Source: Klebsiella phage Roth37. Taken from it: a stretch of 64,000 nt of DNA. The DNA lies in the sequence record PQ657803.1, one strand, 5' to 3'. The notes below the pieces were generated by a model. The model did not search any database, was not told the origin of the DNA, and saw only the letters and a list, made by a program, of their open reading frames with translations. The position numbers and the translations under genes are program-made. Of this stretch, positions 9,930-10,870 are shown piece by piece; positions within the stretch are counted from its first letter, which is position 1, and every line of letters begins with the position of its first letter.

Positions 9930-10060
9930 TAGTGTTTCTCACTTCCTTTTTGAAATACGAATCATTCTCATTCGCATTCAGCTCGGTAAACGCAAATCAT
10001 TCTCATTCGCATTCAACTTCTCAAATGCGAATCGTTCTCATTCGTATTTGCATTTCCGAC
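9930..10060. repeat. Three tandem copies of ~21-bp unit GAATCATTCTCATTCGCATTC
   Basis: Visible tandem repetition with internal dyad AATGCGAAT/ATTCGCATT. Confidence 0.7.
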
Positions 10061-10080
10061 CCCCGGCCCTTCCTGCGCTT

Positions 10081-10640
10081 ATGTGCGAATCCGACAATTT
10101 GTCAAGCAAAATATTACGTGAGGCTGCTAGGGTATGTGCAAATCCGATGAAAATTTATTTTTACCGCCCTGGGGGCATGTGCAAATCCGACACGAATATG
10201 TGCAAAACCGATGATAATTTTTAGGGGGAAGGCGCGCAGTTTGCTGCGGCGCAGCGGTGGGCGCGAGTTTGGGTGAGTATGTGCAAAACCGATGGGTATT
10301 TTTGGGGGAGGGATAAATGGGGTTAATTGGGGCAATTCGGGGATGATGGGGGCAGGGGGCAGATAAGGGAAAATATTATGAGTTAAATGGGGGTAAAGGG
10401 GTTGACACAGAAAAAATTCCTGTGGCTCTAAAAAACAAGCGAACTCACGGTGACACACCGTGTAAAAAGGCTTGAAATTTCAGGAGATATTTTATATTCG
10501 CAGAATCGAAGATTTTGATCCACAGCTACCGTTTGCCAGTATATATGTGCATATCCGACAACTGTTTGAGTATGTGCATATCCGATGATGATTTTTATAT
10601 GTGCATTTCCGATAGTAGTTTTTATATGTGCAAATCCGAT
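10081..10640. repeat. Iteron array: 9 direct copies of 15-bp motif ATGTGCAWWWCCGAY, last four with 27-bp spacing
   Basis: Copies at 10081, 10134, 10177, 10198, 10279, 10545, 10572, 10599, 10626; a TGATCCACA DnaA-like box at ~10513. Confidence 0.8.
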
Positions 10641-10647
10641 GATATTT

Positions 10648-10870
10648 TGTGACGCTTAGGACTTAGGCGAGTGATGTGAGTTTGTGTGGAACTTCGTGAG
10701 AACTTTGTGGAGTGACGCTTAGGACTTGGGCAGCTAGCGTTTTTAATGTGGGAGATGTGTGAGGACTTCGTGAGAGGTGTGGAACTTCGTGGAATTGTGT
10801 GAGTTTCTAGAAATTGCTTTCCGAAAAAGTGAGTTGGAAAATAACCGCCCTCCCCTTAGGTGTGTGGAAA
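10648..10870. repeat. Cluster of short direct repeats (GTGACGCTTAGGACTTRGGC x2; GTGTGGAACTTCGTG-like x4; GGAAARAACCGCCCT x2)
   Basis: Read directly; ORF-free region. Confidence 0.7.

Follow-up and report, generated by a model that had tools for sequence, protein, structure and literature searches.

An iteron field at the terminal-repeat boundary of Klebsiella phage Roth37 and its probable orthology with T5 Repeat Region 3

The non-coding block and its repeats

The window analyzed here is a 64,000-nucleotide stretch of Klebsiella phage Roth37 (PQ657803.1), a T5-like phage of Sugarlandvirus (Demerecviridae) that over the region of interest is 93-95 % identical to P5010, GZ8, KpGranit, and Sugarland. 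A gene-free block of 1.6 kb (~9690-11275), to the right of the pre-early genes dmp, A1, and A2 (1-4036), is set between convergent genes; the ORFs on either side code for membrane proteins of small size and for a member of a PHROG family without assigned function. The original prediction had described this DNA as ORF-free, which holds biologically: curated relatives annotate zero genes from ~9690 to 11275, and the longest mechanical ORFs (9841-10224 on the + strand and 10114-10458 on the - strand) gave no Pfam or PHROG match. Some relatives' records place 6-12 tiny "hypothetical proteins" in the block, whereas curated ones place none. A search of 9000-12000 against Rfam (E<=1) found no RNA family. 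GC content across the block ranges from 0.37 to 0.52, with no distinct AT-rich unwinding element.

At the left of the block, on the + strand, a palindrome (ACTGTATAAATATACAGT) is followed by two pairs of DnaA-type boxes, together forming a module at 9801-9920. The first pair (TGTTGATAAgtcTGTTGATAA) occupies 9839-9859 and the second (TTTGTATAAcccTGTTGATAA) 9900-9920, and within each pair the DnaA and DnaA* boxes are separated by 3 bp. These canonical paired boxes sit just upstream of the interval to which attention had originally been drawn. About 3.9 kb to the left of the palindrome lies an inverted partner (5811-5876), a 66-nt inverted repeat that is 89 % complementary to 9801-9866, accompanied by consensus DnaA boxes (TTATCCACA) at 5769 and 5830, 61 bp apart. 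The tandem units that come next on the + strand had been given as three of ~21 bp; they are in fact three 35-bp units at 9953-10057 (AAATACGAATCATTCTCATTCGCATTC...), homologous to T5 direct repeats C/E, and the outer two also make an imperfect inverted repeat. At 10070-10080 there is a putative homolog of the T5 7.9 % major nick, recognizable by sequence (CCTGCGC↓TT at 10072-10080), which directly abuts the first iteron.

The 15-bp iteron (ATGTGCAAATCCGAY) occurs in nine same-strand copies, eight exact and one with a single mismatch, when none would be expected by chance. The form ATGTGCAWWWCCGAY is matched on the + strand at 10134, 10177, 10198, 10279, 10545, 10572, 10599, and 10626 (0 expected in 100 shuffles), and the copy at 10081 reads ATGTGCGAATCCGAC, with a G at position 7. 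The nine copies claimed at the outset are thus all present, but the one at 10081 fits only with one mismatch; a tenth, degenerate copy is found at 10046. Outside the locus, a single match with <=3 mismatches occurs in the 64 kb, at 44001, and is likely due to chance. The copies fall into two clusters, both on the + strand. Cluster 1 (10081-10293) holds the five iterons from 10081 to 10279, which, counted from the degenerate copy at 10046, are spaced 35, 53, 43, 21, and 81 bp. Cluster 2 (10545-10640) holds the remaining four, whose predicted phasing at 27 bp is exact and is also called by TRF, as a 27-bp x 4 tandem array at 10542-10648.

Between the clusters, 10294-10400 is a G-rich tract whose + strand shows a strong G skew; in T5 the corresponding stretch carries direct repeat A copies 2-3. 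The tract is 97.5 % conserved among Sugarlandvirus genomes. The DnaA-like box predicted at ~10513 exists on the + strand (TGATCCACA), although at 10516-10524 and with only 8/9 matches to the DnaA box. It is lacking at the equivalent T5 position and falls outside the strict-consensus DnaA matches, and we regard it as lineage-specific and of doubtful significance. Beyond cluster 2, the + strand carries the further direct repeats that had been noted (10649-10880): the 20-mer GTGACGCTTAGGACTTRGGC twice (10649 and 10712), the 15-mer GTGTGGAACTTCGTG twice exactly (10684 and 10777) together with degenerate copies, and AACCGCCCT twice (10839 and 10868). In T5 as in Aeromonas phage AhP_Mru1, the AACCGCCC repeats are found at the corresponding point of the layout.

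[quoted passage not shown]

The repeat region of T5 was reportedly described by Heusterspreute in 1987, and its injection stop signal region is said to have been treated by Davison in 2015. In the window the block comes after the pre-early genes and ahead of the first early gene, where the left terminal repeat has its right end, and this position matches KpGranit, Sugarland, and T5. A pairwise alignment with T5 is collinear, element by element, with a mean column identity of 71 %. Islands common to both phages comprise ACTGTATAAATATACAGT with the box pairs; the 35-bp units; CCTGCGCTT, followed directly by the first iteron; the iterons; the G-rich tract; TTGACA...CTGTGG.TCTAAAAA; and ATTTCAGGAGA. 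The module at 9801-9920 is near-identical to T5 in this alignment, with a pair-to-pair spacing of 61 bp in both phages, and it is the homolog of T5 IRD'-spacer-IRC'. The inverted partner has its T5 homolog in IRC-spacer-IRD ("Repeat Region 2", 6022-6152), and the T5 nick feature (9661-9668, ccctgcgc) is aligned with window 10072-10080.

The T5 record AY587007, whose annotation of these repeats is that of Wang (2005), lists nine copies of "direct repeat D" (DRD), six inside the left repeat and three beyond it, and upstream of them palindromes, inverted repeats D'/C', direct repeats C, and the "7.9 % major nick"; a second T5 record, AY692264, labels 9140-10144 as "injection stop signal". The T5 DRD as deposited, (A/T/G)TGTGCAAATCCGAC, is the same motif as the 15-mer of the window, which on this evidence can be taken to be DRD. 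By its sequence and arrangement, the block, in Sugarlandvirus, is thus almost certainly orthologous to "Repeat Region 3" of T5, the non-coding injection stop signal region: it shares with that region its place, element order, iteron sequence, number of copies (nine), nick and terminus sequences, and inverted partner. The placement originally proposed, at the boundary of the terminal repeat and the injection stop, is borne out by this collinearity and by a repeat end that falls inside the iteron field.

The differences from T5 are of detail. T5 splits its DRD copies 6+3 over the repeat end, whereas the Klebsiella phage splits them 5+4; cluster 2 is a regular 27-bp tandem here but dispersed in T5; T5 has a longer DRC/DRE set where the Klebsiella phage has three 35-bp units; the GTGACGCTTAGGAC and GTGTGGAACTTCGTG repeats are lineage-specific in the Klebsiella phage; and its paired boxes are, unlike those of T5, all of the variant form TGTTGATAA. 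The element is therefore already known from T5 (1987, 2005, 2015, and 2020), and the copy described here, an ortholog whose regular 27-bp array is lineage-specific, adds no new kind of element. Davison found the region in 25 T5-like phages and extremely conserved, proposed DnaA boxes as the stop with IRD'-spacer-IRC' as the prime candidate, and assigned no role to the other repeats of the region (10.1101/866236).

The right end of the terminal repeat in this phage is placed, by homology, after base 10428, within a terminus box on the + strand at 10395-10435 (TTGACA-N19-CTGTGGCTC↓TAAAAAA); in relatives this end is also the physical right terminus of the genome. The last 25 bases of the KpGranit repeat, as defined by PhageTerm, match the window exactly and end at 10428; the annotation of the repeat end in GZ8 agrees within a base; and 10428 is homologous to the T5 repeat end at 10139. 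Cluster 1 would then lie inside the terminal repeat and cluster 2 outside it, starting 117 bp past the terminus, for a total of five DRDs inside and four outside. Among nine full-length T5-like contigs checked (both repeats), seven end in ...CTGTGGCTC or CTGTGGCCC, that is, in ...TTGACAAGTGAAAATT(T/C)(C/T)TGTGGC(T/C)C. Within the genus the terminus box has a conservation of 0.998, the highest in the block.

Database records disagree on where T5-type repeats end. The PhageTerm repeat end of Sugarland maps to window 10078, which is the nick-site homolog, and the repeat ends of AY692264 (9749) and BF23 (9743 bp) have apparently also been set at the nick. Terminal-repeat lengths recorded for T5-like phages are inconsistent because some have been set at the nick and not at the true end, and in practice this choice affects the lengths found in databases. 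T5 has a further major nick at ~99.5 % of the genome, which fits a repeat that reaches a few hundred base pairs past the nick.

Distribution among phages

The suggestion that the 15-mer might recur elsewhere, for example in the right terminal repeat, could be followed in the complete 122.7-kb genome of KpGranit, where the right repeat is the one other place that has copies with <=2 mismatches; the array in the window is likewise exclusive to the locus. Across IMG/VR, two motifs 5-35 bp apart were found only on T5-like contigs of 104-123 kb (a scan with the single motif was dominated by chance single matches). The paired motif was present on only five MAG contigs in 185,579 bacterial and archaeal genomes, none of them labelled Enterobacterales or Vibrio, a result that speaks against a counterpart of the array on the host chromosome. 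A1-like genes outside Demerecviridae (ParMal1 and pf16) came with no DRD. A logo of 321 distinct units reads (A)TGTGCAAATCCGAY, also written (A)T-GTGCAAATCCGA-Y, with a T-tract 6 nt downstream, although the information content of its core is inflated by how the units were selected. Iteron variants within Demerecviridae can be contrasted as TGTGCAAATCCGAY and AGTASWWWTYCGAY.

Ten Sugarlandvirus relatives keep the spacing 35, 53, 43, 21, 81, ~266, 27, 27, and 27, and cluster 2, with four to six copies among such relatives, retains its 27-bp spacing. An array absent or scrambled in relatives with two-step transfer would have counted against the original prediction; T5 itself and these 10 genomes keep it. 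Conservation at the genus level is 0.89-1.00 in the non-coding block, as against 0.58 and 0.81 in the flanking ORFs. The architecture extends to Tequintavirus, Myunavirus, Sugarlandvirus, and Vibrio phage Gary. Pectobacterium phage My1, which belongs to a different subfamily, resembles T5 in having two DRD clusters astride its annotated repeat end. The A1 protein of Gary is only 33 % identical, yet the DRD field is still present: in T5 orientation the palindrome comes first in the Gary sequence, followed by paired boxes of consensus form, a tandem array of 8-bp units, CCCTCCTGCGCC, and iterons reading GTGCAAATCCGAC, which lie on both sides of the repeat boundary given in the record. Aeromonas phage AhP_Mru1 also keeps the layout, including the AACCGCCC repeats and the palindrome module, and its iteron has drifted to AGTA(C/G)WWWTYCGAY. 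In every lineage examined the DRD field stands astride the annotated or inferred right terminus, and in four lineages DRD clusters have been found to flank it.

Possible roles of the direct repeats

How T5 stops after 8 % of the genome has entered, how transfer restarts, and how the 10-kb repeats are cut have been open questions for more than 50 years, and the block is the only candidate cis element. Taken as a whole, the explanation we prefer, and consider probable, is that it is the ortholog of T5 Repeat Region 3, where first-step transfer halts and the terminal repeat ends. The mechanistic part of this explanation is tentative, and we would give it somewhat less than an even chance. The left module (palindrome, paired boxes, inverted partner, and 35-bp repeats) would be the stop, acting via a host or membrane factor, for which Davison proposed DnaA. 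The DRDs would be directional sites for a DNA-binding protein that is specific to the lineage and most likely encoded by the phage, with the pre-early A2/A1 complex as the obvious candidate. Loaded on the DNA that emerges first past the stop, this protein would drive or license second-step transfer. A2 matches the PHROG "DNA binding protein" family, and both A1 and A2 are needed for second-step transfer. The DRD field would be the first DNA to enter at restart because it begins at the base after the nick or shear point. The same arrangement also counts against the mechanism, since DRDs to the right of that point are outside the DNA already in the cell at the pause. The position of cluster 2 outside the terminal repeat is a further point against it, and the lie of the repeat terminus between DRDs in every lineage examined suits a packaging or terminus role at least equally. 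As the original prediction had said of the binding factor, the literature still assigns neither a binder nor a role to DRD, and we found in it no mutational mapping of the injection stop signal. The idea of a "tail-length ruler", with cluster 2 at the portal during the pause, was rejected on the nick-to-cluster-2 distance, which is ~280-744 bp in Gary, this phage, T5, and My1.

The array had also been likened to an origin or partition site, whose DnaA boxes and iterons would bring in either an initiator or a protein like ParB; on the evidence now available this is very improbable. Iteron origins combine 15-20-bp iterons at 20-30-bp spacing with DnaA boxes and A/T-rich DNA, and the direct, same-orientation iterons beside DnaA boxes in P1 oriR, F oriS, pSC101, and lambda ori have a formal parallel here in the paired DnaA-type boxes, A/T-rich spacers, and one-orientation array. 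A "replication origin binding protein" is also annotated among the products of the phage. However, the block differs from such origins in having no cognate initiator (or par gene) adjacent, in lying between genes that converge on it at a terminal-repeat boundary, and in a 27-bp spacing that is not helically phased (~2.6 turns). What the origin-binding-protein homolog shares with the herpes profile is confined to residues 51-197, which is the helicase part, and does not include the UL9 DNA-binding domain. The DRD itself was considered as a UL9-like box, its reverse complement holding TTCGCAC/TTTGCAC, which we take to be reminiscent of the herpes UL9 box, but this was rejected on the confinement of the homology to the helicase N-terminus. 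The T5-like family Demerecviridae is virulent, and we know of no plasmid state requiring partition in virulent T5-like phages; no parA/parB-type genes were found in the left 50 kb of annotated relatives. Further against an origin, earlier mapping cited by Davison put those of T5 near the genome centre, and the T5 replication genes are, according to Davison, silent during the first step (10.1101/866236). A reading that extends Davison's model, in which the DRDs are extra weak DnaA boxes and membrane-associated DnaA coats ~0.8 kb and anchors the DNA, is improbable, if less so than an origin. Read on the opposite strand, the left half of the DRD (TGTGCAAAT) gives ATTTGCACA, which agrees with TTWTNCACA at eight of nine positions; the copies at 10198 and 10279 (TGTGCAAAA) are 9/9 DnaA-box matches; and the DRDs have the orientation of the paired boxes at 9839-9859. 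Yet the right half (TCCGAY) and the "N" position, an invariant C, are conserved as strongly as the DnaA-like half, and the window shows no enrichment of the strict DnaA consensus (seven matches against 5.4 expected). In AhP_Mru1 the iteron keeps TYCGAY while the change of TGTG to AGTA kills the DnaA core, and the canonical TGTGGATAA by the palindrome is kept. As judged from these motifs, DnaA is an unlikely partner of DRD, and a phage-encoded, co-evolving binder would fit it better, because the AhP_Mru1 iteron has lost the TGTG required for a DnaA box.

The most serious competitor of transfer control is a terminus or packaging role, in which a protein of the small-terminase type would bind the iterons astride the right boundary and direct a sequence-specific cut, so that co-location with the injection stop would be secondary; we hold this to be possible but unlikely. 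It draws on the position of the right terminus (10428) between clusters 1 and 2, repeated in T5 (6+3), My1 (5+3), and the Sugarlandvirus relatives; on the repeat boundary of the Gary record, which is 7 nt from a DRD and has DRDs on either side; and on the terminus box, the most conserved stretch of the block. The single orientation of all DRD copies suits a polar process, and the drifted iteron of AhP_Mru1 suits a phage-encoded binder. There are also precedents: in P1 pac repeated hexamers flank the cleavage point, lambda cosB has its R sites, and these, like SPP1 pac, have short motifs repeated to either side of a terminus that is sequence-specific. Unlike them, the DRD field spans ~600 bp, its distances from the cut vary (134/117 bp for the DRDs flanking the terminus here, 244/86 in T5, and ~350/245 in My1), and the left terminus is without any DRD-like repeat. 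Copy 1 of T5 "direct repeat A", near the left terminus, was considered as a shared terminus signal but was absent from the first 6.5 kb. A literature search found no experimental pac or terminus signal for T5, and a packaging role leaves unexplained why the field starts exactly at the boundary of first-step transfer. Transfer control is slightly favoured over a terminus role because the left edge of the field is the first-step boundary and because iteron-terminus distances are not conserved, although the two roles are compatible with each other. Somewhat less likely again than the terminus role in general is a specific version in which the DRDs are not part of the stop, and instead form a bipartite directional landing pad for a phage protein (the small terminase or A2) that sets the right boundary of the 10-kb repeat. 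Were this so, the injection-stop module and the terminus-forming site would be one conserved cis-acting unit, and this would account for a repeat end that, in all Demerecviridae lineages, lies only a little beyond the first-step boundary.

The comparative results narrow the candidates, given that DRD is exclusive to the locus and to the family, extends from Klebsiella to Vibrio phages, and abuts the nick site. A2 and the putative small terminase, encoded by the ORF upstream of terL, are both ~40 % identical between the Klebsiella and Vibrio phages, so that this comparison does not discriminate between them. A likeness of the iteron to the tRNA T-loop (GTTCAAATCC against GTGCAAATCC, with a 3-mismatch match in tRNA-Pro) was dismissed as a coincidence, there being no complementary stem. 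Cluster 2 is single-copy in the genome, and as such is a simple target for mutation.

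Placement of the terminal-repeat end

Among database entries for T5-like phages, the assigned end of the terminal repeat differs by ~350-400 bp. In one set, the end is placed at the homolog of the T5 7.9 % nick (window 10072-10080), as in Sugarland (L002; PhageTerm call, position 3350), the T5 record AY692264 (repeat end 9749, site 9748-9749) and BF23 (repeat length 9743 bp). In the other, which includes the T5 record AY587007, KpGranit, GZ8 and many full-length records, it is placed at ...CTGTGGCTC (window 10428). In analyses based on read starts, the nick probably passes for an end. 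[quoted passage not shown]

Repeat variation within and beyond the iteron array

Two copies of the 15-bp iteron, the T5 "direct repeat D" (DRD), carry AAAA rather than AAAT (window 10198-10212 and 10279-10293), and this makes both perfect for the DnaA-box consensus TTWTNCACA on the minus strand (TTTTGCACA). The match is not conserved, because the equivalent copies in KpGranit are a different variant (GTAT) and the canonical AAAT, respectively. In Aeromonas phage AhP_Mru1 (L164 9540-9915), canonical DRD is replaced by a drifted iteron, AGTACTTATCCGAC / AAGTAGAAATTCGA. Further, whereas enterobacterial phages have mainly 35-bp units, both this phage (L164 9914-10097) and a Vibrio phage (L158 8700-8800) carry in their place a long tandem array of 8-bp units of the GGATAGAA/GTCTAGAC type. 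The Vibrio and Aeromonas variants thus constitute a natural covariation set for identifying the binding protein. About 400 bp past the repeat terminus, AACCGCCC(T) repeats (window 10839-10851 and 10868-10880) are conserved in the Klebsiella phage of the window, T5 (L004 ~1818-1860) and an Aeromonas phage (L164 ~9170-9205); they are absent from the list of annotated repeats in the T5 record.

A leftward promoter and a putative non-coding transcript

The 245-aa early ORF has a terminator (window 11243-11267, minus strand) that is directly followed by a sigma-70 promoter with perfect consensus, TTGACA-18-TATAAT with an upstream TG (window 11185-11214, minus strand), which is directed leftward into gene-free DNA. 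With a terminator-like site at window 10895-10911 (minus strand), this promoter would give a non-coding transcript of ~280 nt. The predicted RNA had no match in Rfam, and it folds only modestly better than shuffled sequences (z = -2.05). At the equivalent position, T5 has a similar promoter, TTGACA-17-TATCAT.
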